This document shows, in pieces, positions 1 to 45,761 of a DNA stretch of 57,216 nucleotides (positions within the stretch are counted from its first letter, which is position 1; each line of letters begins with the position of its first letter). A program made the position numbers and the translations under genes. Origin of the DNA: an uncultured Candidatus Saccharibacteria bacterium (GTDB lineage Bacteria; Patescibacteriota; Minisyncoccia; Phycocordibacterales; UBA2100); NCBI GenBank assembly GCA_964424265.1, contig CAYRHX010000006.1:1-57216 (forward strand), read 5' to 3'. Below the pieces are notes generated by a model. The model was given only the letters and a program-made list of their open reading frames with translations, ran no database searches and was not told where the DNA came from.

Positions 1-335
1 TTATCTTCACTCTGTGTGCCGTAATCGGTGCCGGGGTGGCATCCTGTTTTCGGGTAATTTACTTTGTCGGGACTTAAAAACTTCTGCGTAACCTTGAATT
101 TGTCCGCTCGAATTGGGGCGTGCCACTTATTTTTCGACGCAGGATCTAGATTCTCTTTCACGGGCTCAAGATATGTCGCGGCACAAAATCCTTTGGTGCC
201 GTCTGCCAGCGTCACTGCTTTCCAGGTATATTCATCACTCTCGACAACGGTTCCCGCCGTTAGGCTGCCAATTTTCGGACCATCGATACTAGGCCTGGAT
301 CGCATATTAATCGTATCCGTGGCTTTATATTTCAT
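1..335 (-). CDS. Partial CDS (first 111 codons; continues past the left window edge): SH3b-like domain followed by the start of an M23/LytM-type peptidoglycan peptidase
   Basis: Absent from the ORF track because it runs off the edge. My translation of the reverse strand from ATG at 335 gives MKYKATDTINMRSRPSIDGPKIGSLTAGTVVESDEYTWKAVTLADGTKGFCAATYLEPV...KFKVTQKFLSPDKVNYPKTGCHPGTDYG. The first half fits the bacterial SH3 pattern. H-P-G-T-D-Y fits the HxGxD metal-binding motif of M23 peptidases. Confidence 0.6.
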   Translation of the reverse strand, partial: MKYKATDTINMRSRPSIDGPKIGSLTAGTVVESDEYTWKAVTLADGTKGFCAATYLEPVKENLDPASKNKWHAPIRADKFKVTQKFLSPDKVNYPKTGCHPGTDYGTQSED

Positions 336-345
336 ACATCTCTGC

Positions 346-570
346 CTAGTGGCGGAGTCTTCTAAGCGCCTCTCTTAATATCTTTTTTCTACCCTCGCTC
401 GGGCTTATCTTCTTCGCAGCCGCAGTCAGAGCCTCTTTTGCATCTTGCTTTGTTGTCCCTTCAGGGGCTTTATTCTGTAGCTGCTTCACCGCATAGTAGA
501 ACTCCCACTTTTCCTTAAAGCTGATCAGATAGCTGTCTGGTCTGCCTTTCTTTTTCTTATCGTCTGCCAT
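346..570 (-). CDS. Small lysine-rich hypothetical protein (74 aa)
   Basis: ORF 346-651 trimmed to the internal ATG at 570 (MADDKKKKGRPDSYLISFKEKWEFYYAVKQL...). The longer form would overlap the stop (605-607) of the upstream nuclease gene. No family recognised with confidence. Confidence 0.4.
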   Translation of the reverse strand: MADDKKKKGRPDSYLISFKEKWEFYYAVKQLQNKAPEGTTKQDAKEALTAAAKKISPSEGRKKILREALRRLRH

Positions 571-604
571 ACGGAAATTATACTTCCCGTTTGTCGCTCC
601 GCAA

Positions 605-1546
605 TCATCCCGCAAGGTCCCATTCGACGAGCGCGAAGTTTTCGGAATCAAATCCCGATGAAAGAGCTGCTTTGAGCCACTGTGTTTGCGACAGTTGCAC
701 GCGGTCTTTCTTTGAACGTTTCAGCTCGATGAACAAAATACTGTCGTCCTTCCACGCGAGCACATCCCAGCATCCGCCGCTTTTTCCGGTCTTCGCTCGC
801 AGGGATTCGACGACTCGGTTCTGTGCTTCGGGGAGTTCAACGGGTGTGGCGACATCGGGCAACCCGACCCGATACTTCCGTCGGTAGCTGTCCACCCAAA
901 CGCCGTTCCATCCGTGCGACTGGAACAAACACAAAACCGCAAGCTCGGCGAATACCGGCTCGCCGTTCCAGTCGATGACCGCTTTGCCGTTATAGTCGGT
1001 CGGCACAGGTGCGCCCTCCCACTGCTTGAACTGAAGGAGATATTTCTGGACGAGGGTGTGTCCACCGGATGGGAGTGTAAAAATCTCATTGTCCACTCGG
1101 TGCGGAAATATTTCGAGGTCACTTCTATAAAAACTACGTGGAATGATGAGTCGGTGCTTCTTGAACGAATTACATCGCTTGCACGCGAGCGTCAGATTTT
1201 TTATGTGATTGGACCCAAAATCCTGTGCCGCGACTTTTTCCGATGAAACACGCGCAATGTGTCTGAGTTTTTTGTTGAGCTCGTTCGTCGCAAGCGGGAC
1301 GATATGGTCGGGCTCCCAAATTTCTTCCTTGCTGCAATCCGGATGAATGTGGAGCTGGCATTTTCCGCCATGCGTCAGTATCAGCCCTGCGAGCAGTTTT
1401 TTCTTCGTCTTATTAAACTCCCATCGCTTGATGGCTTGGTGTCTGAAGTCGAAGTGTTCAGAAAATTCATCCTCCAATCTTTTTGCATCACCATCGGCGA
1501 GCAGATTGGCGAAGAACTCCCGATCTTCGGGATATTCGAATTGCAT
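605..1546 (-). CDS. Two-nuclease fusion: N-terminal HNH endonuclease domain plus C-terminal VRR-NUC / PD-(D/E)xK-type nuclease domain
   Basis: 313-aa ORF. HNH signature: C-x-L-H...PDHIVPLATNE...NLTLACKRCNSFKKH. The C-terminal GCWDVLAWKDDSILFIELKRSKKDRVQLSQTQWLKAAL fits the D...E-x-K...Q..W layout of VRR-NUC domains. Confidence 0.75.
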   Translation of the reverse strand: MQFEYPEDREFFANLLADGDAKRLEDEFSEHFDFRHQAIKRWEFNKTKKKLLAGLILTHGGKCQLHIHPDCSKEEIWEPDHIVPLATNELNKKLRHIARVSSEKVAAQDFGSNHIKNLTLACKRCNSFKKHRLIIPRSFYRSDLEIFPHRVDNEIFTLPSGGHTLVQKYLLQFKQWEGAPVPTDYNGKAVIDWNGEPVFAELAVLCLFQSHGWNGVWVDSYRRKYRVGLPDVATPVELPEAQNRVVESLRAKTGKSGGCWDVLAWKDDSILFIELKRSKKDRVQLSQTQWLKAALSSGFDSENFALVEWDLAG

Positions 1547-1688
1547 GCACCTTGATACGCAGAGGAGCCAGTGTCTACGGAACGCAGGGTAAGCATATTT
1601 ATTATCACAGCGCTAACCTCGCGATGCGAAGTGGGTGGTCTCCATCCGAACCAATTCCGTTTAGCGAACTCGTCGAAGCATAACTACT

Positions 1689-2402
1689 ATGAACATCGAT
1701 GCATACACATTCCGCGCCCGTTTGGTGCCGGTATTCATCGTGCTGCTGCCGTTGGGGCTGGCTTTTTTTGCATTCTATCCGCTCACCTCGGTAATATCGG
1801 CATTGGTAGGATTGTTTGGAACACTCTCGGTGCAGAGCTTGCTCACACTTCTTTTTTCAGAAATCGGGCGTGATCTTGGGAAAAAGAAGGAGCCGGGACT
1901 GTATGAATTATGGGGTGGTATGCCAACCGACTTTATTCTCTCGTTGCAGTCGTCACTAGATCGTACAACGGTGGAAAGATACAAGACCAAGTTACGGGCT
2001 ATGCTACCGGACGTATCGTTTCCGACGGCAGAACAGGAAGCGAACAACCCTTCTGCGGCACGAGATGTTTATCGCTCATGTACAAATTTCATGCGGGAAA
2101 AGACACGCGATACAGCAAAGTATCCGCTGCTTTTCAGAGAGAACGTTAGCTAGGGTTTCCGTCGAAATCTTTGGGGCATGAAACCGGCCGGTATCACTGT
2201 AACCCTGATCGGATTGACCTCATGTGTATTTTCGCTGACCGCATTTCCAAAGAATGAATACGAAATGATAGTTGCATGGGTAGGCCTAGCGATAAACGCG
2301 GTACTTTTGACCTGGTGGATATTCCGTATAAACCGCCCTTGGATTAGAGTCGCGGGAGACGAATACGCAAAGCAGCTTTTCGCTGCGTGCGAAACCCTCT
2401 AA
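1689..2402 (+). pseudogene. Four-TM membrane protein reading frame interrupted by a single in-frame TAG (2151-2153). It may instead be two adjacent small membrane-protein genes (1689-2153 and 2178-2402)
   Basis: ORFs 1689-2153 and 2178-2402 are in the same frame (both starts are divisible by 3). The only stop between them is the TAG. Translation across it reads ...LLFRENVS*GFRRNLWGMKPAGITV..., with two predicted TM helices on each side. Confidence 0.5.
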
Positions 2403-2633
2403 GTTCCGTAAGGGGTGACGCGAAACCGCCCTTATGCGGGGCGGTCGCGTAACACCGTCTCAGGTTCGTGCGGGGGCAGTAATAATCGAACGGAGTCGGT
2501 CGCCCTTGTACCATTATGGCTTAAGATATGAAAGAATTCGAGGTCTTTTCAGGGTCCCCGCTACGACGCTTGCTTCCTATACGGTTATCTTATATAATCT
2601 CCCATACTTGAAATATGAGATAGCTTACCCGGT

Positions 2634-3689
2634 ATGACCAATCGTCTGAACAACCGCCTAAAGAATTTGCCAGAAAATATCTGGTCACTCGTCAATAAAA
2701 TCGACCTCTTCAAAGGACAATGGATCGGCGGTGCGCAACTGAATCCGCATGCGCTCGGCCGCCTGAAGCGCTCTGTGCTCATAACATCGACTGGTGCCTC
2801 GACGCGCATTGAGGGCGCAGGGCTGTCCGACGAAGACGTGGAGAAATTAATGCGCGGACTCTCGATGCAAAAATTTGCCGATCGGGATAAACAGGAAGTG
2901 AAAGGATACTACGAACTACTCGAAAACGTGTTTAATTCCTGGAAACACATTCCTTTTACCGAAAGCACTATCAAGCACTTTCATAGCGAGCTTCTGAAAT
3001 ATGTGAAGAAAGACGAGCCGCATCGGGGTGAATACAAGAAAAAAGAGAACAAGGTAATGATGATTGACGGGACGGGTAAATCGGTTGGCACTCTTTTCGA
3101 TACGACACCCGCATATCTGACGCCGAAAGAGATGCAAGAACTTGTCGAGTGGGCACAGGAGGAACTTGCGCTTCAAAAAATACACCCGCTCATCATCATC
3201 GGAAATTTTCTGGTGGAATTCCTCAACATCCACCCGTTCGAAGACGGTAACGGGCGTATCTCTCGTGTGCTAACAAATCTTCTAATGTTGCGGTCAGGGT
3301 ATGCATATGTGCCATATGTATCGCATGAGAAGTTGGTCGAAGATAACAAAGCAGAATACTACGTGGCACTACGGAGAAGTCAAAAAACATTCAAATCGGA
3401 TAAAGAAACAATTTGGCCATGGCTGGAATTTTTTCTGAACACGTGCGTGACACAAGCAGAGCAGGCAATTGAACTGCTTTCCCAGGAAAATATCGAGCGG
3501 CTCCTCTCTCCGAAACAGCTCGTTGTATGGCAATATCTTGAGCACATGCCTGAAGCGACGCCGGGGGAGATCGCAAGAGCGACAAAAGTGGCACGTCCTA
3601 CGGTATCGCAAGCACTCGATACGCTTATGCGTCTGAAGAAGGTGGAACGGATCGGCCAAGGCAGGACGACGCGGTATCGAAAGATATAA
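2634..3689 (+). CDS. Fic-family protein (AMPylase-type Fic domain) with C-terminal winged-HTH
   Basis: 351 aa. Canonical Fic motif HPFEDGNGRISR (nt ~3231-3266). The C-terminal PGEIARATKVARPTVSQALDTLMRLKKVERIGQGRTTRY is a typical wHTH. Confidence 0.9.
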   Translation: MTNRLNNRLKNLPENIWSLVNKIDLFKGQWIGGAQLNPHALGRLKRSVLITSTGASTRIEGAGLSDEDVEKLMRGLSMQKFADRDKQEVKGYYELLENVFNSWKHIPFTESTIKHFHSELLKYVKKDEPHRGEYKKKENKVMMIDGTGKSVGTLFDTTPAYLTPKEMQELVEWAQEELALQKIHPLIIIGNFLVEFLNIHPFEDGNGRISRVLTNLLMLRSGYAYVPYVSHEKLVEDNKAEYYVALRRSQKTFKSDKETIWPWLEFFLNTCVTQAEQAIELLSQENIERLLSPKQLVVWQYLEHMPEATPGEIARATKVARPTVSQALDTLMRLKKVERIGQGRTTRYRKI

Positions 3690-3692
3690 GGT

Positions 3693-5804
3693 ATGTACTC
3701 ACGAGAAGAACGGGTCGAGATTTTCAGATCCCTCTTCAAAGGGCGCGAGGACGTGTTTGCTCGACGATGGGAAAAGTGGCAAGGCGGAGTTTCCGGTTAT
3801 TCGCCCTTATATACCGATCAGGATAAGGAATCATATACGCCACTCTCCATTGACTGGATCGAGAAACACCTGACCGGTGCGGCAACACTCGGAGTATACC
3901 CACTCCTTAACGACAATACGTCGAATTTTATAGTGGCAGATTTTGATGGAAAAAGCTGGCAAAGCGTAGTCAGGAATTTCCTTGTCGTCTGTGCACGGCA
4001 TACGCTACCTGTTGCAATCGAACGATCACGTTCGGGAAACGGTGCCCATGTCTGGTGCTTTTTCGACGCTCCATACCCGGCAAGCAAAAGTAGACGGGTA
4101 TTCCTTTCTCTTCTCCGCGGGGCGGGATGCATAGACCCTTTGGAGAAAAACGAGGGCTTCGACCGTCTGTTTCCGAATCAGGATTACTTGTCCGGGAAAG
4201 GACTCGGCAATCTTATTGCGCTCCCTCTTCAGGGTGAATCACGAAGAAATGGCAATACGGTTTTCATTGATCCTGACAAAAGTTTTGAGGCGCATGCAGA
4301 CCAATGGCAATACTTGCATGATCTGCAACGAACGAGCGCGGAGTTTCTCGATGGTTTGTACAAATATACCTATCCTGATCAGGATGAAGCAGTCCCAAAG
4401 AAGAAAGTGCACGCTCATTTCGGGAAGACCATTATCCTCACGCTCGATAATGCTATTTCAATTTCAAAGACGAATCTGCCGCCACATCTCGTCTCGTACT
4501 TGCGTGAGGAACTCAATATTCTCAACATCGGCTATGTGGTAAAGGAACGCGCGGGTTTGCCGACCTACGGCGAAAAGAAATTCATCAAAACACTCGACCA
4601 GACAGATGACTCAATTCTCGTACCGCGTGGTTTTCTTACGAAGCTGTATGCGTGGCTCGACGAACGGAACATCAAATACCGCGTTATAGATACTCGACTG
4701 ACACTTGGTGCAGTGGGTCTCAAATCCACATACACCATGCTCCCCTATCAAGAGTCTACCGTCGCAGCCTTCGACGCGTCAGAACAAGGCATCCTCGTAG
4801 CCCCAGCTGGAGCGGGAAAAACATTCATGGGCCTTGAGATCATCGCGCGTAAGAGGCAGCCCGCGATTATTCTGACGCACCGTAGACAAATATACGATCA
4901 GTGGCTCGAAAGGGTTGAGCAAGGTTTCGGAATCCCGAAAACCAAAATAGGGCAAATTGGCGGGGTGAAGAAAAATCCGGGTCAACTAATAACAATCGCC
5001 ATGGTGCAAACACTTGCGCGCATGAAAGATATCAGTGACATCGCTACGCGTTTTGGCACTGTACTCATAGACGAGTGTCATCATATGCCATCGAGGATGT
5101 TCCGCGATGTGGTTTCGAAATTTCCTGCACGCTATCGATTCGGATTGACTGCCACTCCGTCGCGCAAATACAACGACGAAAAATTGATCGGCGCATATCT
5201 GGGCGAAATCGTGCATACGATCGACAAGGCGCAGGTGCAAAACATTACTGCGCAATCGCACGATGCGACCCTTGTGAGTGACGCTGTCGTCGTGCGGACA
5301 ACGAGCCTCGCAACGCCATTCGGCACCTCGTCTCGTGATTTCCAACTGATGTCGAAAGTGCTTTCGAGCGATGCGAATCGGAATGCGCTTATTGCCGAAG
5401 ATGTTGCGCAGGAAGCGAACAGTGGCAAGAAGTGTCTTGTGCTCACCGAACGTAAAGAACATGCCGAGATGCTGCGTGCATATCTGCGTAAAGATTTTGA
5501 AACTATCATGTTCTCTGGAGATCTGTCTTTTAGACAGCGTTCGTTCGCGCTCCAGAAAATCAAGGGCGGAAGATTCCGGATTTTGATAGCGACCGGTCAG
5601 ATTTTGGGAGAAGGAGCTGATATCGCCGACCTCGAAGTACTTTTCCTCGCGTTTCCAGTTTCATTTCACGGCAAGCTCGCACAATACGTCGGCCGTATCA
5701 AACGCGAAAGCGGACCCAAAAAGGTCTACGACTATCGAGACGCAGCCGTACCAATTCTCGAAAAACTTTGGAAGAAACGTGCAGCGTACTACCGAAAAAA
5801 ATGA
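3693..5804 (+). CDS. Fusion of an archaeo-eukaryotic primase (AEP/PrimPol-like) N-terminal domain with a superfamily-2 DEAD/DEAH-type helicase
   Basis: 703 aa. The ATG lies 3 nt after the Fic stop. N-terminal REDVFARRWEK...GVYPLLNDNTSNFIVADFDG...ERSRSGNGAHVWCFF is AEP-like. Helicase motifs: APAGAGKT (Walker A), LIDECHH (motif II), GLTATP (motif III), and a C-terminal helicase lobe (ILIATGQILGEGADI...AQYVGR). Confidence 0.85.
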   Translation: MYSREERVEIFRSLFKGREDVFARRWEKWQGGVSGYSPLYTDQDKESYTPLSIDWIEKHLTGAATLGVYPLLNDNTSNFIVADFDGKSWQSVVRNFLVVCARHTLPVAIERSRSGNGAHVWCFFDAPYPASKSRRVFLSLLRGAGCIDPLEKNEGFDRLFPNQDYLSGKGLGNLIALPLQGESRRNGNTVFIDPDKSFEAHADQWQYLHDLQRTSAEFLDGLYKYTYPDQDEAVPKKKVHAHFGKTIILTLDNAISISKTNLPPHLVSYLREELNILNIGYVVKERAGLPTYGEKKFIKTLDQTDDSILVPRGFLTKLYAWLDERNIKYRVIDTRLTLGAVGLKSTYTMLPYQESTVAAFDASEQGILVAPAGAGKTFMGLEIIARKRQPAIILTHRRQIYDQWLERVEQGFGIPKTKIGQIGGVKKNPGQLITIAMVQTLARMKDISDIATRFGTVLIDECHHMPSRMFRDVVSKFPARYRFGLTATPSRKYNDEKLIGAYLGEIVHTIDKAQVQNITAQSHDATLVSDAVVVRTTSLATPFGTSSRDFQLMSKVLSSDANRNALIAEDVAQEANSGKKCLVLTERKEHAEMLRAYLRKDFETIMFSGDLSFRQRSFALQKIKGGRFRILIATGQILGEGADIADLEVLFLAFPVSFHGKLAQYVGRIKRESGPKKVYDYRDAAVPILEKLWKKRAAYYRKK

Positions 5805-5856
5805 TTTTTCGTTTTCTGATACTTCCACGACGCTATCGATGCCATTGCAGTAAGGT

Positions 5857-6069
5857 ATGGAGGTACTTTGTTACTACGACACGAAGAAAAACCGGAAGCG
5901 CGACTTTACCAGGTATCAAGTTTCCCACGATGGCTCTTGGTACATATTCGAAGAGCTTAAATGTCATAATTTTGGCAACGAGACAGCTTGTCACGAAATG
6001 CATCGGCAGGAATTTGAAACAGAACAGGAAGCGCGTGCGGTTTACGAAAGCTGTCTGGGCGACAAATAA
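5857..6069 (+). CDS. Hypothetical 70-aa protein
   Basis: ORF only (MEVLCYYDTKKNRKRDFTRYQVSHDGSWYIFEEL...). It lies in the gap between two convergent helicase genes. No recognisable motif. Confidence 0.3.
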   Translation: MEVLCYYDTKKNRKRDFTRYQVSHDGSWYIFEELKCHNFGNETACHEMHRQEFETEQEARAVYESCLGDK

Positions 6070-6090
6070 TTTCCGATACTTCTCTCGTCA

Positions 6091-7794
6091 TCAATTTTCG
6101 ACATCATTGTCATACAACATCCGCGCAAGACGCAGATCGTCATAGGAATAGGTGTTGTCGAGTTTCTCGAAGACGGGCGTGAGACGCTCAAGGCCGAGTT
6201 CTTTGAACGCGGCGTGAATCGTCGGGAGAGACTGCTTGAGCGATTGTGAGACGAGCGGCTCGATGTCGGAACGACTGAGGCGACCTTTTGAGAAGAGGTC
6301 GTAGACATGCGATGAGATGGTTGTTTCGACAAGCCCGCGCGTTTCCGCGATCTCGCGGATTGATTTGCCACTTTTAAGAAGGGCGAATGTCGCTTCGAGG
6401 GTGGAGATACGAACCTCTTTCTTTTTCGGCCCCATTCCCGGCTTACCGCCGCATGCGTGGATAAAGTCGTTGTGCATTATTAAAAGTTCTGCGGGATTGA
6501 TTGCATTGAATTTTTCACGCGCTTTGTCCGATTGTTGGCGAAACTCTGTATCCTTCCCTTGAACTTCGGGGTGTATCTCGAGTGCGCGAGCGTTGAGGCC
6601 AGCGAGCGAGAGCCCAGCGAGCGTGCGTACGCGCGAAAGAGCGACGTAGCCCTGCCCGTACTCAAACGTATCGGAAAGATCCATATGCGCAGCATCGAGC
6701 GACATTCCCTGACTCTTGTGCACCGTCATCGCCCACGCGAGGCGAAGGGGAATTTGAATGATGCGAGCAAGAACGCGTCCGCTGTCTTCGATGTGCCACT
6801 CATCCGGTTCTGCATAGATCGTTCTTCCAGCATTCGTCTTTACGATAGGGTACCCTGTTTCGGAAAATCCGGTAACAGTACCAAGCGTACCGTTCACATA
6901 GCGATGTGTTGTGATGTCATTCTTCGTGAACATAATGCGCGCACCGATCTTGAGCGAAAGAATCTCCGGTGAGAGACATCCGCGCTTCAGTGCGGCGACC
7001 AATTTATCCGGACCGCGGCTTGCCATCTCGAATGTTTTCACTTTGCCCACAAGTTTCGCTAGTTCTGCATCGTTGATCGCGTTGACATCAGCATTGTGCG
7101 AGTAGAGTTGCGTGATTCCATCCTTTGGTTTTGGTGCATAACGTGTGCGCAAGAGTTGACGATGCGGTTCAACGACAATTGCCCGCCGTACCGCCGAGAG
7201 AAATTCCAGAAATACGACATCTTCCTGCCGATGCTGCTCCGAGAGGTAGCAGACCAGTGGATTGAGTGTATTCCAAGCCGGGGAGAAAAATGCGAATTGC
7301 TCTCTGCTTTCCGACTTGACCAGGGATATTTGCTCTTCTTCGCCGTCTTCTCGTTTACTTACAGGCGGCAACTGGAAAAAATCGCCAACTAGAACGACTT
7401 GCAAACCGCCAAAAGGTCCGGGGTTGCGTCGTATCTCGCGACACACCGCTTCGATCATCGAGAAAGTCCGCGCCGAGAGCATCGAGACTTCGTCGATTAT
7501 GAGAATTCGCGCATTGCCGACCCGCCGCACGACATTTCTGTTTTGCGCGATGCGGTCGAGGTCATATGTCGTAAGATCGCGTCGTATGCCGATACCGCTC
7601 CACGAATGGATCGTGAATCCCCCGATATGGGTAGCGGCGATACCCGTCGACGCAGTAATTGCGGGCTCTATGCCGCAAGAGCGCAGATGCGAAACGTACT
7701 GATTAATCGTGTGCGTCTTTCCGCTTCCTGGTTCACCGGTAAGAAATACATTTGCGCCGGTTTTCAGAATCGCAAGCGCTTCGTCTTGAGTCAT
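6091..7794 (-). CDS. PIF1/RecD-like SF1 DNA helicase with C-terminal tandem HTH repeats
   Basis: 567 aa. N-terminal FLTGEPGSGKTH (Walker A), ILIIDEVSML (Walker B), VLVGDFFQLPPV, and the C-terminal helicase lobe WAMTVHKSQGMSLD...YVALSRV, all typical of PIF1-like helicases. The last ~110 aa contain two HTH-like repeats (SIREIAETRGLVETTISSHVYDL...). Confidence 0.85.
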   Translation of the reverse strand: MTQDEALAILKTGANVFLTGEPGSGKTHTINQYVSHLRSCGIEPAITASTGIAATHIGGFTIHSWSGIGIRRDLTTYDLDRIAQNRNVVRRVGNARILIIDEVSMLSARTFSMIEAVCREIRRNPGPFGGLQVVLVGDFFQLPPVSKREDGEEEQISLVKSESREQFAFFSPAWNTLNPLVCYLSEQHRQEDVVFLEFLSAVRRAIVVEPHRQLLRTRYAPKPKDGITQLYSHNADVNAINDAELAKLVGKVKTFEMASRGPDKLVAALKRGCLSPEILSLKIGARIMFTKNDITTHRYVNGTLGTVTGFSETGYPIVKTNAGRTIYAEPDEWHIEDSGRVLARIIQIPLRLAWAMTVHKSQGMSLDAAHMDLSDTFEYGQGYVALSRVRTLAGLSLAGLNARALEIHPEVQGKDTEFRQQSDKAREKFNAINPAELLIMHNDFIHACGGKPGMGPKKKEVRISTLEATFALLKSGKSIREIAETRGLVETTISSHVYDLFSKGRLSRSDIEPLVSQSLKQSLPTIHAAFKELGLERLTPVFEKLDNTYSYDDLRLARMLYDNDVEN

Positions 7795-7930
7795 TTGAGC
7801 ATTCTAAGATTAATCGTCATTTTCACAAAGTTCGAATCCTTTTCGTATTCGGACTTTTTACGTGGACACGGTCGCCCTACCGTCCTTGTTTTAATAGGAA
7901 TCGGTCGCGGTACACGCGTGCCCTAGACTT

Positions 7931-8015
7931 CGGAGAGGGGGAGATTCGAACTCCCGATACCTTGCGGTATGCCGGTTTTCGAAACCGGTGCATTCGACCA
8001 CTCTGCCACCTCTCC
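7931..8015 (-). tRNA. tRNA-Ser (anticodon CGA), long variable arm, no encoded CCA
   Basis: Reverse complement: GGAGAGG-TG-GCAG..-CCGGT-TTCGAAA-ACCGG-CATACCGCAAGGTATC-GGGAG-TTCGAAT-CTCCC-CCTCTCC-G. Cloverleaf folded by hand. Confidence 0.9.
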
Positions 8016-8177
8016 TTCGAGCAGCCGACGGCTGCTCAGGCCACGCCCTAAAAAGGACGAGCCAGAATGATCTGGCTCTGCTCAAAGTACCACACTTTCT
8101 CTTAGGCCGAAAATACGCTAAACTTCGAGTTATTCGTCTGCTTTGAAGGCTTGCCCTCCGAAGCCTCGGCGAAGGAG

Positions 8178-8249
8178 GGCCCTATCGTCTAATGGTCAGG
8201 ACAGCGCCTTTTCAAGGCGTTAATCCGGGTTCGATTCCCGGTAGGGTCA
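8178..8249 (+). tRNA. tRNA-Glu (anticodon TTC), no encoded CCA
   Basis: GGCCCTA-TC-GTCT..GGAC-A-GCGCC-TTTTCAA-GGCGT-TAAT-CCGGG-TTCGATT-CCCGG-TAGGGTC-A. Cloverleaf folded by hand. Confidence 0.9.
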
Positions 8250-8307
8250 AAAATGTTGAGGTATAGGTATTTCGGATGGCGGTGCTACTATTTCTGTACC
8301 TACCTCT

Positions 8308-9216
8308 ATGTCGATGGATCGCATCGAACCTAGGAAAGCGGGGGAACAGATCCCTTTCGACCTTCGCGCATTTGCTCACGCTTCGCAACTAATCCGTGAG
8401 CGTTTTGAGGTTGGTCCGTCAATCGATCGACTCGCATACCACAATCGTGAGCATACCGAAGGCGTCGTACGTCGCGCAAGAAAGATTGCTGAAGCCATGG
8501 ATCTCCCTGCGCGGGAAAAGATATTGGTACAGATCGCGGCTTCTTTCCACGATACGGTGCAAAGGTGGGAGCTTACTCAAAAAGAAGACGGAGCTGCATT
8601 GCGTAAGCGGCAAACTACGACCAACGAACTCGCAAGTGCTGACGAAGCTGTTGCATGGATGAAAAAGCAGGCAGACGCACGCTTCACTAACGAAGAGTGT
8701 GCAATCGTGCACGCCGCTATTCGCGTGACGATCCCGGTGTGGAACGAGGTATATGGGACGGTCTACCAAGATGCGCTTAGGCCTGAGAGTCATCCGGTCG
8801 TGCGAGCTGTAGCGCTTGCAGACATTGGATCGTCGGGAATGGAGCCCTCCGTATTTCAAAAGGAAGGAGATTGGCTTTTTGCCGAACAAGAAATCGACAT
8901 CATCAAGGCGATTCGAAATGCACAAAGCTCTGAAGACATAAGTCCCGAAAAGCAGACGCAGTATCTCGAAAGATACAGAGCGTGGATAAAATCTCAAATT
9001 GGATTTGCGCAGGGACGGCAGGCGCTCTTTGAGGATGAGCTTGGAGATCTTGACGAGGCGAGTACGGATCGTGTCCGGCATCTCTTTGCTCACTTTGCCG
9101 AAGGCATAGAGGCAGCGGAAGAAAATTCGAAGATCGCGGAAAAATGTACTTTTGAGCAAATGGCCCGTCGCCTTGTTCCCACCGCGTTTTCGGCGGGAGA
9201 TAGGGAGTCGCAGTAA
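8308..9216 (+). CDS. HD-domain (metal-dependent phosphohydrolase superfamily) protein
   Basis: 302 aa. YHNREHTEGV ... AASFHDTVQ gives the H...HD pattern. The rest is not recognisable. Confidence 0.6.
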   Translation: MSMDRIEPRKAGEQIPFDLRAFAHASQLIRERFEVGPSIDRLAYHNREHTEGVVRRARKIAEAMDLPAREKILVQIAASFHDTVQRWELTQKEDGAALRKRQTTTNELASADEAVAWMKKQADARFTNEECAIVHAAIRVTIPVWNEVYGTVYQDALRPESHPVVRAVALADIGSSGMEPSVFQKEGDWLFAEQEIDIIKAIRNAQSSEDISPEKQTQYLERYRAWIKSQIGFAQGRQALFEDELGDLDEASTDRVRHLFAHFAEGIEAAEENSKIAEKCTFEQMARRLVPTAFSAGDRESQ

Positions 9217-9223
9217 ATGAGCT

Positions 9224-9619
9224 ATGCCTCCACGCAATTCAATCAAGGTGCTGATGATAGACGACGAGAGGCTTTTGCTCGATATCTACAGGATAAAATT
9301 TGAAAATAGCGGATTCGAAGTATATACATGCAATTCGGCAGATGATGGGGTGGCATTGTTGCGCTCGGGCTATGCTCCGGAAGTGATCTTGCTCGACATT
9401 ACGATGCCTGTGAAGAGCGGATACCAATTTTTGGAGGACGTGAAAAGGGGGAATTTGCGCGGGGAAAGCCTCATCGTCGCTCTTACCAACGAATGGCAGG
9501 AAGGAGAAAAGCAGCGGATGGCAGAACTCGGGGCAGACGCACATCTGGTGAAAGCCCACTATGTGCCGAGTGAAATCGTCGCTGTTGTACGGGAGTTGTT
9601 GGAAAAGAAGAAGAGGTAA
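9224..9619 (+). CDS. Stand-alone response-regulator receiver (CheY-like) protein
   Basis: 131 aa. VLMIDDE...ILLDITMPVKSG...K at the expected receiver-domain positions. Confidence 0.85.
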   Translation: MPPRNSIKVLMIDDERLLLDIYRIKFENSGFEVYTCNSADDGVALLRSGYAPEVILLDITMPVKSGYQFLEDVKRGNLRGESLIVALTNEWQEGEKQRMAELGADAHLVKAHYVPSEIVAVVRELLEKKKR

Positions 9620-23670: not shown

Positions 23671-24816
23671 TTAGTCGACCAAGACCTCTTTTGGTTTGTC
23701 GCGCAGATTGTAATCTGAGCTCATGGTGTAGCCGTAGGCCCCAACGTCGGCAAGGAGAAGCATGTCGCCGATCTCTGGCTTCGGTATTTTCCGGTCAGTC
23801 GCAAATCGGTCGGAAGATTCACAGATGTTGCCGACGACCGTAACGACCGCTGGCTTTGCATTCGGGCGCGTGAGATTGAAGATGTGGTGGTAGGAGCCGT
23901 AGAATGCAGGACGGATGAGGTGGTTGAATCCAGAATTAATGCCAACAAACGTATGTTTTGGCGTCTTTTTGATATCAACGACAGTGGCAAGGAGGCATCC
24001 CGATTCCGCGACGATATACCGACCAGGCTCGAGGCGTAGTTCGAGATCACGGCCATAGGATGTACAGAACTTCGCAAAGGTCTCCCCGAGCTTCTTTCCA
24101 AGGATCGCAATATCGAGAGCCTTCTGATCTGGCTTGTAGGGGATGCCGAGTCCTCCGCCAAAATCCATAAATTGAAGGTCGGGGAATCCTTTTGCTGACT
24201 CAAGCAGCAATTTCATTGCGCGGATAAACGCGCCGGGGTTCGAGATATTCGATCCGATGTGTTGCTCAAGGCCAATGACGGTAAGGCTATATTGCTTTGC
24301 GATCTTTCGCGCTCTAGGAAGGTCGGTGTAGTAGATACCAAATTTGCTTTCAGGGCCACCGGTAATGATGTGGCTTGTGGCTCCTGCGCCGAATCCACGA
24401 TTTACGCGCAGTGAGACTTTGGAATGCGGTTTCATCTCTCCCCACCATTCGAGTTGCGTAAGTGAATCGAGGTGTACTGAGCTCACGTGCGCCGCTACCC
24501 ATTTGAGTTCCTCTCTGGAGATATAGGAGCAAGTATACGAGATGCGCTCACGTGGGAACCCGACACTGATCGCTCGTTCCACTTCTCCACGGCTCACGCA
24601 CTCGATAGATGAACCAGCCTCTTTCAATAGGACGAGAATTTCTTTATTAGAGTTGGCTTTGCATGCGTAGTAGAGCTTCGTCTTTGGGTACTGGATAGAT
24701 TTTAGGAGATTCTTGTACTGATTTTCGATAACACCCCTTTTATACACATACAGTGGTGAGCTGTGTTTGCCCATAAGTGCTTTCGCCTCAGAGGTATTCA
24801 AAAGTGGCTTTTTCAT
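23671..24816 (-). CDS. lysA: Diaminopimelate decarboxylase
   Basis: 381 aa. YYACKANSN (PLP-Lys), GGGLGIPY, EPGRYIVAESG, and the C-terminal CESSD motif. Confidence 0.9.
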   Translation of the reverse strand: MKKPLLNTSEAKALMGKHSSPLYVYKRGVIENQYKNLLKSIQYPKTKLYYACKANSNKEILVLLKEAGSSIECVSRGEVERAISVGFPRERISYTCSYISREELKWVAAHVSSVHLDSLTQLEWWGEMKPHSKVSLRVNRGFGAGATSHIITGGPESKFGIYYTDLPRARKIAKQYSLTVIGLEQHIGSNISNPGAFIRAMKLLLESAKGFPDLQFMDFGGGLGIPYKPDQKALDIAILGKKLGETFAKFCTSYGRDLELRLEPGRYIVAESGCLLATVVDIKKTPKHTFVGINSGFNHLIRPAFYGSYHHIFNLTRPNAKPAVVTVVGNICESSDRFATDRKIPKPEIGDMLLLADVGAYGYTMSSDYNLRDKPKEVLVD

Positions 24817-24964
24817 GAGGCGAGCATAGCATAATGAGTAAAAATGTGGAGGCAGGGTGTACCGATTGACAGAAAAGTCTTATGCGTGTTACATGGATCC
24901 CTATCCGCATCCTGCGGGTATAGTTCTTCGCCGCGCGGAGCGGCATTATGAGGAAGAGGAAAAA

Positions 24965-25177
24965 ATGACCGACGAAGAAGAGGCAAAAAAAATTGCCGAG
25001 GCCGCCACGATTGTGGCGGCGAAAGTGAGACTCCTTTCCGTCACCGAAGAGGTGACGAAAGGACAAAAAATTGGAATCGCCCGCGAGGCGGCGGGCTTCG
25101 TGGGGCTGCAAATTGCCCCGAACGGCGGGGAAGAGCCGCACTCGACAGTACGGGCGATCCTCGAGCGGGTCAGGTAA
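24965..25177 (+). CDS. Hypothetical 70-aa acidic protein
   Basis: Internal ATG of ORF 24857-25177, preceded by GAGGAAGAGGAAAAA. Followed by a hairpin plus T-tract at ~25203-25240. No family recognised. Confidence 0.3.
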   Translation: MTDEEEAKKIAEAATIVAAKVRLLSVTEEVTKGQKIGIAREAAGFVGLQIAPNGGEEPHSTVRAILERVR

Positions 25178-25236
25178 CTCACTCAGATTGGGCACGCTCC
25201 AGGAAGCGAGACGCCACTGCGCCTCGCTTTCTTCTT

Positions 25237-25275
25237 TTATATCCCCTGCGGCTGGTGGCGGAGGTAGGCGTTATA
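25237..25275 (-). repeat. Relic copy of the trxB 3' end, a direct repeat of 26087-26125
   Basis: 28 of the first 30 nt are identical to the last codons plus stop of trxB located 850 bp to the right. In the trxB frame the relic still reads YLRHQPQGI-stop. Confidence 0.7.
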
Positions 25276-25436
25276 TGTGCTTTTCTCTTGAATCTTTGGC
25301 TTCTCAATTTCCACAGTCTACGGTGGCCCGCATTGACTAGATCTCTCTGAGGCGATATATTGTTGCTCATACACGCCCCAGCCGACCGCAAGGTTCGCTG
25401 GGGTTTTTCGTTGCCTATTGCTACAATTTGGAGCAC

Positions 25437-26060
25437 ATGCAAACGATACTGCTCATAGACGGCGAGAACATCAAAGGCAAAATCCGTTCTGTTTTTAAGG
25501 ATGCCGATAAGGGAAAGCCCGTATGGCACGAGTACGATTTTCGAGGACTTTTGGATAAGGTGTTGGAGGGCATGAAGAGAGATCGGGAAGTATTTTACTT
25601 TGCGCGTATCAAGGAGCACGAACAGAGCAAAGAGAAATCGAGACAGCTCATCGAAGACCAGCGACAGCTCAAGACGCATTTAGAGAAGCAGGGGTTTGAG
25701 GTGATTTTGAGCGGACGAGTACGCGGGCAGTTCGAGGACGGGCAAGGCGGCAAAAAGGTGCTGGTCTTCAAGGAGAAGGGCGTAGACGTGAAAATCGCCG
25801 TTGATATGGTCAGCTTATCGTGCGAGAAGAAGGTCAAAGAGATAATCCTCGGTAGTTCCGATAGCGATCTTCAACCGGCGATCAAAGAAGTGCGCGACCG
25901 CGAAGTCAGTTGTGTGTACCTTGGGTTTGAGGCACAGCCGAACAAAGGAATGACGTTTACGACGAATAGGACTATTTTGATACGGAACTCGGAACTCTTT
26001 GAGTTCGAGAAAATCCAACCCACGCTCATCAGCACCGCACCGTCAGGCCCCGAACATTAG
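25437..26060 (+). CDS. NYN-domain (LabA/PIN-like) putative RNase
   Basis: MQTILLIDGENIKG...KGVDVKIAVDM...ILGSSDSDLQPAI matches the conserved acidic positions of NYN domains. The track start at 25428 is a TTG, and ATG 25437 is preferred. Confidence 0.8.
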   Translation: MQTILLIDGENIKGKIRSVFKDADKGKPVWHEYDFRGLLDKVLEGMKRDREVFYFARIKEHEQSKEKSRQLIEDQRQLKTHLEKQGFEVILSGRVRGQFEDGQGGKKVLVFKEKGVDVKIAVDMVSLSCEKKVKEIILGSSDSDLQPAIKEVRDREVSCVYLGFEAQPNKGMTFTTNRTILIRNSELFEFEKIQPTLISTAPSGPEH

Positions 26061-26086
26061 TTGGGATCATTGCGGACAGGGGAAAT

Positions 26087-27031
26087 TTAAATCCCCTGCG
26101 GTTGGTGGCGGAGGTAGAGGTAGATGTCTTCTAGTGCTTTTACAGCATCGCCAGCGGCGATGTTGTTTTGATGGTAGAGGCCATCGGTGCAATCGCCCGC
26201 GGCCCAGATGCGGGGATGTGAGGTGCGGTGGGTGCGGGGGTCGACTTTGATTTGTCTCACCTCGTTCATCTCTAGTGCGTTGCCGACCCACTCGGTGTTG
26301 GGAAGAAGGCCGATCTCGACGAAGATTCCTTCGACGGGAAGTAATTCTTCTTTTCCCGTTTTCGAATCTTTCCATCGTAGGCCGGAGACAAATTGCGCTC
26401 CTTCGACCGCCACGATCTCAGAGTTTTTCACGACGCGCATGTTGGGGTGAGCGAGAGCAGCGGCGATGCTGATTTCGTCGGCGCGGAATGCGTCACCGCG
26501 ATTGAAAAGCGTAACCGTTTTGCAATAGGCGAGGAGCTGTAGCGCCGTCTCGAATGCGGCGTTGCCACCTCCGATCACTGCTACGTCTTTATCGGCAAAG
26601 AGCGGGCCGTCGCACGAGGCGCAGTAGGTGAGGCCCTTTTGGTCGTACTCTTTTGCGCCAGGAATCTCAAGTTTGCGCCGAGTCGCTCCCGTTGTAATGA
26701 GCGCGGCTTTCACGTTAAACGTCTGCTTGTCTTTCAGGATGATATCGACGGATTCGTCGTGCGGTACGAGCGAGGTGGCATATGCGGGTGCCACAATAGT
26801 GAGCCAATCGCCCACGTATTCTTCAACGTGTTTTTGGAGGTTTACTGCGAGATCAGAGCCCGTGATCGAAGGGGTCCCGATCCAGTTTTGAATTTCGGTA
26901 GATGTGGTGCTTTGTCCCCCCCACTCAGCGGTGATGAAGACGGTCTTCAGACGTTTGCGGGCGGCGTATATGGCGGCGGCGGCCCCTGCGGGGCCGCCGC
27001 CAACAATTGCGAGTTCGTATGTATGTGTCAT
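26087..27031 (-). CDS. trxB: Thioredoxin-disulfide reductase
   Basis: 314 aa. GGGPAGAAAA FAD motif, redox-active CASCDG, GGGNAA NADPH motif. Confidence 0.9.
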   Translation of the reverse strand: MTHTYELAIVGGGPAGAAAAIYAARKRLKTVFITAEWGGQSTTSTEIQNWIGTPSITGSDLAVNLQKHVEEYVGDWLTIVAPAYATSLVPHDESVDIILKDKQTFNVKAALITTGATRRKLEIPGAKEYDQKGLTYCASCDGPLFADKDVAVIGGGNAAFETALQLLAYCKTVTLFNRGDAFRADEISIAAALAHPNMRVVKNSEIVAVEGAQFVSGLRWKDSKTGKEELLPVEGIFVEIGLLPNTEWVGNALEMNEVRQIKVDPRTHRTSHPRIWAAGDCTDGLYHQNNIAAGDAVKALEDIYLYLRHQPQGI

Positions 27032-27092
27032 GAAGTATTATTGGCGACTACAGGACCGCCGCGATTAACACGGATGTATTCTACTACACTCT

Positions 27093-27245
27093 AGAGCATG
27101 TTTCTAAACCTTCGCTTCGAGACGGTATTCCCTCGGAACCCGGATTTTCTTGCTGAAAGATCCTCAATCCTCGCACTCCTCGTGCTGCGGGGATTCCTCC
27201 GGGATACCGTCTCTCAGACCGGTTAAGCGTTTTCAAACATGCTCT
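27093..27245. repeat. Palindromic ~150-nt intergenic element, copy 2
   Basis: Highly similar along its whole length to 19093-19242. The block CGAGACGGTATTCCCTCGGAACCCGGATTTT and the core TCCTCAATCCTCGCACT-N-TCGTGCTGCGGGGATTCCTC are shared. Lies between trxB and the ftsZ stop. Confidence 0.8.
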
Positions 27246-27256
27246 AAAAACAACCC

Positions 27257-44166: not shown

Positions 44167-44468
44167 TCAAAAGAATCGTACCCATAGTCCTCCTCTGTAT
44201 CCCCGCAGTTGCCCTCGCGGCCCCAAACACATTCAAAGATTTAGCGAATGTTCTTGTGGGTCTCATGAACGCAAGTGTTGGTTTGCTCGTTGCTGCGGGG
44301 CTTGTGATATACCTCTTCGGCATGTCATTCAACATCTTGGAATTTGGTACAAATAGCAAAGACAAGGTCAAAGCCTATTTCTTCTGGGGGATCATTGTCA
44401 TCACCGTCATGGTTTCAGTGTGGGGGCTCGTCGCCCTGCTTCAAAATACGCTTTTTCCTAAGGGCTAA
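44163..44468 (+). CDS. Small secreted 2-TM pilin-like protein (paralogue family FxWG...M(V/I)SVWGL(V).LLQ.T(L/F))
   Basis: 101 aa. ATGA overlap. Signal peptide ending ALAAP. The C-terminal WGIIVITVMVSVWGLVALLQNTLF is shared with 45037-45423 and 45492-45761. Confidence 0.6.
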   Translation: MIKRIVPIVLLCIPAVALAAPNTFKDLANVLVGLMNASVGLLVAAGLVIYLFGMSFNILEFGTNSKDKVKAYFFWGIIVITVMVSVWGLVALLQNTLFPKG

Positions 44469-44474
44469 GTCATC

Positions 44475-44906
44475 ATGTTCACCACCGCGAACAAAAGAAT
44501 GGGATTTAAGATTCTGGAGGCATTTCCTGTTGCGCTTCTGTTTTTCGCGTTGCCACATGTGGTCTACGCGCAAGTCGTTGCCAAATCCATCGGTGTCTTA
44601 AACATCTTTATCGGGCTAATGCTTATCGCAGCACTTGTGACGTATGGGATCGGACTCGTGCTGTGGGCTACACGCCTCGGCAGCTGGCCGTCGTATCGCA
44701 CGGAGGCCATTGTAGTCTTGGAATGGTCCGTGGCCATGCTCTTTGTGCTCGTGGTACTTATTTCGGGCATACAGTTTTTCCAGAATCATTCGCAGGTGGC
44801 GTACCGTATCGTTACCGGCATTATCGGTATATCTGTAATAGCGTACATATTCATCAGTCTTGCGGTACCAAAGGCCAAAAAACCCGAGGATGAGGAGCAC
44901 AAATAA
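44475..44906 (+). CDS. Small 4-TM membrane protein
   Basis: 143 aa. Signal-like N-terminus (...HVVYAQV), hydrophobic helices, and a charged tail KAKKPEDEEHK. Confidence 0.5.
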   Translation: MFTTANKRMGFKILEAFPVALLFFALPHVVYAQVVAKSIGVLNIFIGLMLIAALVTYGIGLVLWATRLGSWPSYRTEAIVVLEWSVAMLFVLVVLISGIQFFQNHSQVAYRIVTGIIGISVIAYIFISLAVPKAKKPEDEEHK

Positions 44907-45036
44907 GCCCTTACACCCGGTAATTCCGCGCCCTGGTTATCCACACAGAGCCGTCTATGGGCATTGTGTTTTCGGTTGCCACCTATAGGATTGAGGTACT
45001 TAACAGATAGAAGATCGTAATCGCTTTAATACAATA

Positions 45037-45423
45037 ATGACTATGCGGAAATTTATCACAACGTCTATTCTTGCTCTCAGCACAATGACAGTTCCTGTAA
45101 TTGCATTGGCACAGGTCAGTCCTGCATCAGTTACGACGGGATTGTTGGGGGCTTTAGGTGGGATCTCAGTTCTTTTGAATGGTCTTATCGGAGTAGCCAT
45201 CACACTTGCAATCGTCGTCTTTTTCTGGGGACTAATCAAATACTTGTTTGTGGGTGGCGCAGAGGGGAAGGCTGAAGGTCTCAAGATTATGTTTTATGGA
45301 GTCGTGACAATCTTCGTAATGATTTCTGTCTGGGGTCTAGTTGAGTTGCTTCAATATACATTTGGCGTACGGGGGATTGGCTCTCCGTCCACGAGCGGTT
45401 TGCGAGTTATGCCCACTTTCTAG
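45037..45423 (+). CDS. Small secreted 2-TM pilin-like protein (paralogue)
   Basis: 128 aa. Signal peptide ending ALAQV. FFWGLIKYL...YGVVTIFVMISVWGLVELLQYTFG. Confidence 0.6.
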   Translation: MTMRKFITTSILALSTMTVPVIALAQVSPASVTTGLLGALGGISVLLNGLIGVAITLAIVVFFWGLIKYLFVGGAEGKAEGLKIMFYGVVTIFVMISVWGLVELLQYTFGVRGIGSPSTSGLRVMPTF

Positions 45424-45491
45424 CCCAACAGAAGAGAAGGTGATTGAAATATTTAAGTTCAACATCTGATAAAAAGGGTTATTGGAAAAGT

Positions 45492-45761
45492 ATGGATACG
45501 TTGGCTGCGGGTATCATGGATAGGATATCCAGCTACATACTCGATCCCGCAATAGCCGTTGTTTTTACGGCGGGATTGGTCGTGTTTCTCTATGGTCTCG
45601 TAGAAGTCCTTTGGGGCTTGAACTCTGGAAAGGTGGATGAAAAGGGGAAAAATCACATGATTTGGGGGATCATAGGTATGACCATCATGGTGTCTGTGTA
45701 TGGCATCATCAGCCTGCTCAACAACACATTTGGGCTTGGGCACAACATCGTCAGGCCATAA
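45492..45761 (+). CDS. Small 2-TM pilin-like protein (paralogue lacking an obvious signal peptide)
   Basis: The track ORF at 45444 has a non-ATG start, so it is trimmed to ATG 45492 (MDTLAAGIMDRI...). WGIIGMTIMVSVYGIISLLNNTFG. Confidence 0.5.
   Translation: MDTLAAGIMDRISSYILDPAIAVVFTAGLVVFLYGLVEVLWGLNSGKVDEKGKNHMIWGIIGMTIMVSVYGIISLLNNTFGLGHNIVRP

Follow-up and report, generated by a model that had tools for sequence, protein, structure and literature searches.

Orphan 3' ends produced by C-terminal displacement are known from rhs, contact-dependent inhibition (CDI), and type VI secretion system (T6SS) effector loci, where they have been attributed to homology-facilitated illegitimate recombination (HFIR) (Kirchberger et al. 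2017, PMC5361080); the same topic was treated by Jackson et al. (2009, PMC2935791, as cited in PMC5361080). In such loci a new 3' end arrives together with cargo behind a conserved gene body and pushes the old one downstream, where it persists as a relic; arrays form when this happens repeatedly, no element-encoded recombinase is involved, and most exchanges are relic-free. Islands that duplicate their attachment (att) site at the 3' ends of tRNA or protein genes also give rise to a direct repeat over the 3' end, leave the gene intact, and have an empty counterpart site in relatives. Here, we describe a locus that resembles both, on a 57,216-nt stretch of DNA from an uncultured, Kaiserbacteria-like bacterium of the candidate phyla radiation (CPR) (GenBank assembly GCA_964424265.1, contig CAYRHX010000006.1, positions 1 to 57,216; hereafter "the window," always at its full length of 57 kb). 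In this locus the 3' end of the reductase gene trxB occurs twice, on either side of a gene for an NYN/LabA-like nuclease.

The locus shares these traits with the rhs, CDI, and T6SS loci, the arrays having their counterpart in a comparison locus (L081, below). It differs from them in that the affected gene encodes a housekeeping reductase, the displaced piece is only 10-22 codons long and serves neither as a toxin nor for immunity, gene and cargo are unrelated, the bacterium is one of the uncultured CPR, and the mechanism is proposed from sequence. Relative to att-duplicating islands it has in common the direct repeat, the intact gene, and relatives whose site is empty as far as gene order shows, and it differs in having no integrase, a single-gene insert of 0.8 kb, a repeat length that varies among lineages, and no conserved arms. 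We lean, if only slightly, toward reading the repeat as a lineage-specific insertion scar, left by homology-driven capture at a recombination hot spot and carrying an old and constrained NYN unit. We regard the scar as a further instance of a type of event already known, and an ordinary one, at a spot where small genes are often gained.

The duplicated trxB end

The principal features of the locus are as follows.

25236-25267, minus strand: left copy of the repeat, now a noncoding trxB 3' relic reading YLRHQPQGI-stop in frame
25268-26085, no strand assigned: inserted DNA between the copies, 818 nt, not downstream of trxB in 160 related loci
25437-26060, plus strand: NYN/LabA-like nuclease gene, 207 aa, Pfam NYN PF01936
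26086-26117, minus strand: right repeat copy, the functional last 10 codons and stop of trxB, plus 1 nt
26087-27031, minus strand: trxB, thioredoxin-disulfide reductase type, 314 aa, Pfam Pyr_redox_2 5.9e-42

An initial annotation, made from the letters of the sequence, had reported that the trxB 3' end is duplicated 850 nt to the left and that the relic still reads YLRHQPQGI-stop in the trxB frame, and both statements hold. The direct repeat is 32 nt long (30/32 identical, copies 850 nt apart) and contains the final 10 trxB codons, the stop codon, and 1 nt past the stop. Its 27-nt core occurs exactly twice in the window against 0 occurrences expected from 100 shuffles. Further copies, which the annotation had thought might mark other attachment sites, were not found: the window holds no third copy of the repeat and no second gene-end repeat of such a kind. 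A gapped alignment of the two copies can be extended to ~46 nt (score 55 vs. 15.5 +/- 2 for shuffles), and this extension beyond 32 nt gains only 1 score unit; therefore, we take 32 nt as the solid repeat. The two flanks have no further similarity, including no relic of the small open reading frame (ORF) end or of the intergenic spacer of the kind seen in one comparison locus (L021, below). The 37-nt and 55-nt stretches that lie between the repeat copies and the NYN unit gave only chance-level matches when their origin was sought, and the left copy is not part of any ORF of at least 40 aa in the ORF list.

Unitigs of four public runs (X1-X4) span both junctions (24300-26173) with 0 differences, and the gene order NYN, small ORF, lysA recurs in three additional public contigs. 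Because these unitigs and contigs agree, the arrangement is not an assembly artifact. All public contigs with an identical LysA contain the insert. No joint skipping the insert at the repeat was present in the contigs of runs X1-X4, although contigs cannot reveal rare variants.

Beyond the left copy lie the native neighbors of trxB.

23671-24816, minus strand: lysA, native trxB neighbor together with the small ORF
24965-25177, plus strand: small ORF convergent with trxB, 70 aa from ATG 24965, 94 aa in public contigs
25201-25232, plus strand: terminator-like hairpin and T-run of the small ORF (centroid stem; z -2.3), abutting the relic

Comparison loci that we fetched are designated by L-numbers, and 160 related trxB loci were compared. 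The gene is the last of a conserved ftsA-ftsZ-trxB block, whose synteny is kept in the fetched trxB loci wherever the contig extends upstream. What follows it varies, with purH next in 40 of the 160 loci, an unnamed 277-aa gene (orf277) in 17, obg in 6, and lysA in 6, and the gap 3' of trxB can be as short as 3 nt or as long as 2.1 kb. Because the gap length varies and there are four different neighbors, we regard the 3' side of trxB as a recombination hot spot, a recurrent site of gain and loss across Kaiserbacteria-like lineages.

None of the 160 loci has an NYN gene downstream of trxB. In the closest relative (L001), trxB is followed after 70 nt by a small convergent ORF and then by lysA, and in two others (L088, L121) lysA comes directly after trxB. 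The comparison of relatives that the annotation had called for yields three candidate empty sites, each judged by synteny, the nearest relative having only 80% TrxB identity. The small ORF has no Pfam family above threshold, and its C-terminus resembles, as judged by eye, that of the 74-aa ORF of L001. Only 59 nt separate the relic from the small-ORF stop, compared with 70 nt for the real trxB stop in L001; the relic thus occupies the native position of the trxB end. This position, and the absence of NYN at the 160 related loci, strongly favor an insertion over many parallel losses. Of the annotation's proposal that an element had inserted at the trxB 3' end, the insertion, the scar, and the displaced end in its native position stand; the dedicated attachment site is not supported.

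The TrxB product has NCBIfam TRX_reduct and AhpF-type matches, both under the curated cut-offs. The nearest TrxB proteins are at most 80% identical and come from uncultured Kaiserbacteria/Paceibacterota (CPR) genomes; the best identity was 80% in the genome scan and 79% in the metagenome scan, and no identical TrxB is on public record.

The NYN unit

The NYN gene is the sole Pfam-supported ORF between the repeat copies, in keeping with the earlier statement that no other gene lies there; a 166-aa antisense ORF that overlaps it (25179-25679) has no Pfam match. The protein matches the NYN profile PF01936 with 52.7 bits (cut-off 24.2, E 8.8e-14). NYN/LabA-like (PF01936, DUF88) nucleases are members of the PIN-like superfamily (Matelska et al. 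2017, PMC5499597). The start listed for the gene, TTG 25428, is probably too early. Homologs are ~198 aa long, their conservation ends at TLI, and their C-terminal tails differ among loci; the final nine codons of the window gene (STAPSGPEH), which lie beyond the conserved unit, derive from flanking DNA. Five residues (D8, N11, D117, D142, and D144) are invariant in 50 NYN sequences. An AlphaFold2 (AF2) model of the protein has a predicted local distance difference test (pLDDT) score of 93.4, and its top Foldseek matches are the LabA-like protein VPA0982 (2QIP, 1.1e-7) and the MARF1 NYN domain (5YAA, 5.7e-5). No match to solved structures was found at the sequence level, the fold search alone giving matches. 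The model predicts an intact NYN nuclease fold, and the protein is most likely an RNase, with RNA rather than DNA as its substrate. With other NYN/LabA-like nucleases it shares the Pfam match, the conserved acidic residues, and the predicted fold; it differs from them in its stand-alone form of 198-207 aa, its tight family, and its conserved promoter-hairpin leader.

The tightness of the family is seen in ~2000 clusters at 90% identity and 414 at 50%. Between the window and a Vogelbacteria locus (L180), NYN is 75% identical, compared with 58% for FtsZ, 51% for TrxB, and 38% for FtsA. The ratio of nonsynonymous to synonymous change (dN/dS) is 0.03-0.08, and synonymous divergence (dS) ranges over 0.56-1.7 in the nearest copies, with all others saturated. 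These values mark the unit as old and strongly constrained, and this constraint makes a fast-evolving toxin or a recently spreading element unlikely. The annotation's hint at a toxin or defense effector is weak: such constraint does not fit it, and a PADLOC search gave weak matches to HEC-09 (7.6e-10) and NYN (1.7e-7) and to no other family. Two further candidates were rejected: recent horizontal spread of NYN, ruled out by the saturated or near-saturated synonymous sites, and a phage origin, as no relative occurs in viral contigs.

The conserved unit begins well upstream of the coding region.

25305-26031, plus strand: conserved NYN unit, comprising promoter, hairpin, second promoter, and ORF to ...FEFEKIQPTLI
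25333-25361, plus strand: promoter-like P1, TTGACT-17-TATATT, ending ~7-13 nt before the hairpin
25375-25408, plus strand: 12-bp hairpin with GNRA loop, then a U-run; a candidate attenuator, or candidate small RNA, belonging to the NYN unit
25419-25427, plus strand: extended -10, TGcTACAAT, 9 nt before the ATG

NYN loci from other metagenomes, in unrelated contexts, are 82-84% identical to the window at the nucleotide level over 25331-26031 and not at all beyond; weaker similarity extends to ~25305. The unit is compact (~725 nt), with sharp borders. Its leader was aligned over ten unique NYN loci (the window, L083, L084, L086, L168, L170, L172, L179, L180, and L190), and in all ten the architecture is constant: promoter, hairpin, U-run, extended -10, ORF. 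Both P1 hexamers and their spacing are kept (consensus cATTGACt, 17 nt, TATAtT), and ~7 nt past P1 the alignment has ATAC(A/C)CG and then the hairpin. The hairpin proper (25375-25404; GCAA loop, -21.9 kcal/mol, z -4.1) carries a conserved C.C or U.C mismatch in its stem. In its alignment 97.5% of cells are paired, against 24-62% in slid controls, and four pairs have compensatory changes. A pattern search finds the hairpin at NYN loci only. The element TGnTAnAAT stands 7-11 nt from the ATG in 10/10 loci; as a putative promoter, like P1, it would yield a leaderless or near-leaderless NYN mRNA.

What the annotation had called a terminator hairpin does have the GC-rich stem and the U-run of one, but it is not that of the upstream gene. 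It starts ~198 nt past the stop of the small ORF, and because it is co-conserved in the ten loci, always behind the conserved promoter, we assign it to the NYN unit, which has its own promoter. The most likely role of the hairpin leader is to restrict or to sense expression of NYN, through attenuation or autoregulatory cleavage. The order of promoter, short structured RNA with a terminator-like U-run, and nuclease gene is like that of type III toxin-antitoxin systems (ToxIN). Unlike those systems, the unit has a single hairpin without tandem repeats, an NYN fold rather than that of ToxN/AbiQ, and very slow protein evolution. Rfam has no family for the hairpin or leader: in the window nothing but tRNAs exceeds the gathering threshold, and the best permissive match has E 6.1. 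We consider the promoter-hairpin-NYN module to be an undescribed motif.

Two side observations concern the hairpin sequence. Runs X2 and X3 include a contig that matches 25369-25413 only, with the hairpin at least 90% identical, unrelated flanks on both sides, and a sequence just past the hairpin that is not NYN-like at its start. Extra copies of the first 19 nt of the hairpin in L171 appeared, when inspected, to be due to chance.

The genomic context of the NYN unit differs in nearly every lineage, with at least eight distinct contexts, among them the following.

L173: NYN after gyrB
L180 (Vogelbacteria), 1-6100: NYN between ftsZ and ftsA, inside an otherwise conserved division cluster
L181-L190: NYN before a helix-turn-helix (HTH) gene
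L169: NYN in a polysaccharide cluster
L167 and L171: NYN near integrase or serine-recombinase genes
L085: NYN adjoining a zeta toxin and a reverse transcriptase
L081: NYN in a toxin-antitoxin island, the NYN copy being among the closest to that of the window (92% aa)

We found no flanking repeats at the NYN units of L084, L085, L167, L169, L171, L173, L180, L181, and L182. Nine of about 11 contexts are thus without a flanking repeat, and in two, the window and L081, NYN is bracketed by duplicated gene ends. (L180 also has a PemK-type toxin gene between trxB and ftsZ.)

Relics of gene ends at other loci

Three other lineages (L016, L021, and L098) have a trxB-end relic 3' of an intact trxB, bracketing unrelated cargo in each case, with scores far above the background distribution of the scan; most occupied sites 3' of trxB have no relic. 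In L021, two copies of ~250 nt, at 6858-7095 and 7683-7925, enclose a 118-aa gene. They comprise 69 nt of the trxB end, the whole intergenic region, in which there is a perfect 36-nt palindrome, and 19 nt from the end of obg. The two copies form a mosaic, in which a part with 96% identity is followed by one that cannot be aligned and then by 105 nt of 100% identity, which fits two alleles and not a simple target duplication. In L016 (3841-3937; L112 is the same), the cargo is a gene for a 96-aa membrane protein; next comes what remains of the purH 3' end (39 nt, minus strand), joined directly to a 64-nt trxB relic across the microhomology GAAgAcCATcGC. In L098, 67 nt are duplicated around 1.4 kb.

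Gene ends are also multiplied at L081, where the 5' end of a GT4 glycosyltransferase gene, with its start codon and the region before it, occurs five times in 4479-9257. These copies stand between cargo units that consist of 23S_rRNA_IVP with a 116-aa ORF, NYN, a 116-aa ORF with RelB/YafQ, and PIN. The region gives the impression of an array that arose as a gene end was displaced again and again.

Several details of these loci can be recorded separately. The functional trxB of L016 has an unusual extended C-terminus (...RRSQPERP). Different small cargo genes lie 3' of trxB in L002 and L003, with a common promoter-like motif upstream, AAGACTTGGCTTATTT(G/C)C (~6990-7020 in L002, ~7095-7125 in L003), and L021 has a similar motif, GGCTTATTTGC, at ~7120.

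Origin of the repeat

Under homology-driven capture, the ancestor would have resembled L001: its trxB would have ended ~60 nt away from where the small convergent ORF stops, and lysA would have come next. About 820 nt, made up of a self-contained NYN unit and a trxB end, would then have entered at the last 10 trxB codons. In this way trxB would retain an intact end at 26086-26117, and its former end (25236-25267) would be displaced 850 nt downstream, where it would no longer be coding. Most likely, the incoming DNA (a trxB 3' end with its cargo) was anchored by homology in trxB; the second joint may have been illegitimate, as in HFIR, or may have come from a single crossover of a circularized fragment. 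An element-encoded recombinase would be unnecessary. We favor such homology-anchored capture because the repeat length is variable, alleles are mosaic, one joint crosses a microhomology, the cargo is unrelated, and relics are only occasional.

Several points weigh against this account. Microhomology at the window's own junctions reaches just 1 nt beyond the repeat, and a homology of 32 nt is near the lower limit for RecA-type exchange. No relative with more than 80% TrxB identity was found, and hence no true empty site and no trxB-NYN donor. Further, one and the same set of trxB codons, N-I-A-A-G-D (ATCGCCGCCGGCGAC), opens the three independent relics of L016, L021, and L098; this stretch is a GC-rich near-palindrome that encodes a conserved flavin adenine dinucleotide (FAD)-binding motif. 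Three of the L081 relics have one common inner boundary. A common start at N-I-A-A-G-D would be expected more readily of a site-specific cut or crossover; the homology model offers no explanation for it.

Site-specific integration is the alternative to which these boundaries point. It would make the trxB 3' end an attachment site for an element that brought a replacement end and NYN, with a tyrosine or serine recombinase encoded elsewhere or a larger island decayed. We think it unlikely; the common relic boundaries at trxB and in L081 nevertheless keep it a live rival. It would account for a repeat that overlaps the trxB 3' end and leaves the gene intact, for relics that begin at one trxB position in three other lineages, and for glycosyltransferase relics that separate the cargo units of L081 in array-like fashion, and some NYN loci do adjoin integrase or serine-recombinase genes. 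Set against this, there is no recombinase in the insert, as the annotation had already noted, or in the rest of the window, by Pfam or by tblastn with a CPR tyrosine integrase, serine recombinase, and reverse transcriptase. Reuse of an att core is at odds with the start of the window relic, which lies 37 nt downstream from that of the other three (~31 nt vs. ~68 nt before the end of the stop codon). Repeat lengths vary (32, 64-69, and ~250 nt), no conserved element arms stand beside the relics, the cargo is different in each case, and most occupied sites downstream of trxB, like most NYN contexts, lack a repeat. The more specific idea of a cassette moved by a recombinase in trans is not supported, given the lack of a recombinase and of any other repeat copy in the window, the variable relic lengths, the unrelated cargo, and the microhomology join.

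A more speculative possibility, and to our minds an improbable one, is a recombinase-free cassette system of Paceibacterota. Units would sit at conserved gene ends, the duplicated ends would serve as portable homology or attachment sites, N-I-A-A-G-D would be a specific cleavage or crossover site, and the hairpin-NYN pair would aid its own spread or retention. Candidate examples would be the NYN unit, the trxB cargo of L016, L021, and L098, and the L081 array. An integron cassette was considered and set aside, as the unit has its own promoters and, as read from the alignments, no palindromic attC-like site at its 3' border.

We also give little credence to the idea that the NYN unit is itself mobile, its nuclease driving a homing- or transposition-like insertion in which a staggered break at the trxB end was filled in to leave a long target duplication. 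The compact unit with its sharp borders and own promoters, the change of its intergenic site from nearly every lineage to the next (behind gyrB, between ftsZ and ftsA, in toxin-antitoxin islands), and the duplicated gene ends around two of its copies would suit such an element. However, the synonymous divergence given above speaks against any recent spread, most copies have no flanking duplication, and the unit was not found in viral contigs. NYN/LabA-type domains, including the matched folds of 2QIP and MARF1, are known as RNases, and the trxB relics elsewhere bracket cargo without NYN.

Finally, the suggestion that the left copy is a functional element (part of the small-ORF terminator or a regulatory site) that resembles trxB by constraint or chance, or else an assembly artifact, can draw on its direct contact with the terminator-like hairpin and on the good preservation of 32 nt next to 5' sequence with no real trxB similarity, but it is largely refuted by an identity of 30/32 where 0 matches are expected, by the retained trxB frame and stop, by the homologous ORF of L001, which has no such element beside it except the real trxB end, by the four-run unitigs and three further contigs that confirm the order, and by the same phenomenon in L016, L021, and L098.

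Read as an insertion, the locus is a clean and verifiable case of a streamlined CPR genome gaining a gene without visible mobile-element machinery. Scars such as the microhomology join of L016, the mosaic of L021, and the array of L081, retained now and then as a record of how the DNA was joined, make it possible to test ideas on recombination in unculturable organisms. In the promoter-hairpin-NYN unit, which is widespread, highly conserved, and without annotation, a putative nuclease is coupled to a candidate for a new small or cis-regulatory RNA. This module and the recurrent gene-end relics are the parts most worth following.

Other features of the window

Between the ftsZ stop and the trxB start (27092-27246) lie nested inverted repeats with the potential to form a structure of ~155 nt, for which there is no Rfam match. 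The outer arms, of 18 nt, are 89% complementary and 119 nt apart, and arms of 23 nt lie inside them. Farther away, at 44385-45727, a coding stretch of 65 nt is present in three diverged copies (66-72%) at spacings of 910 and 368 nt, which suggests a small tandem family of paralogous short genes.

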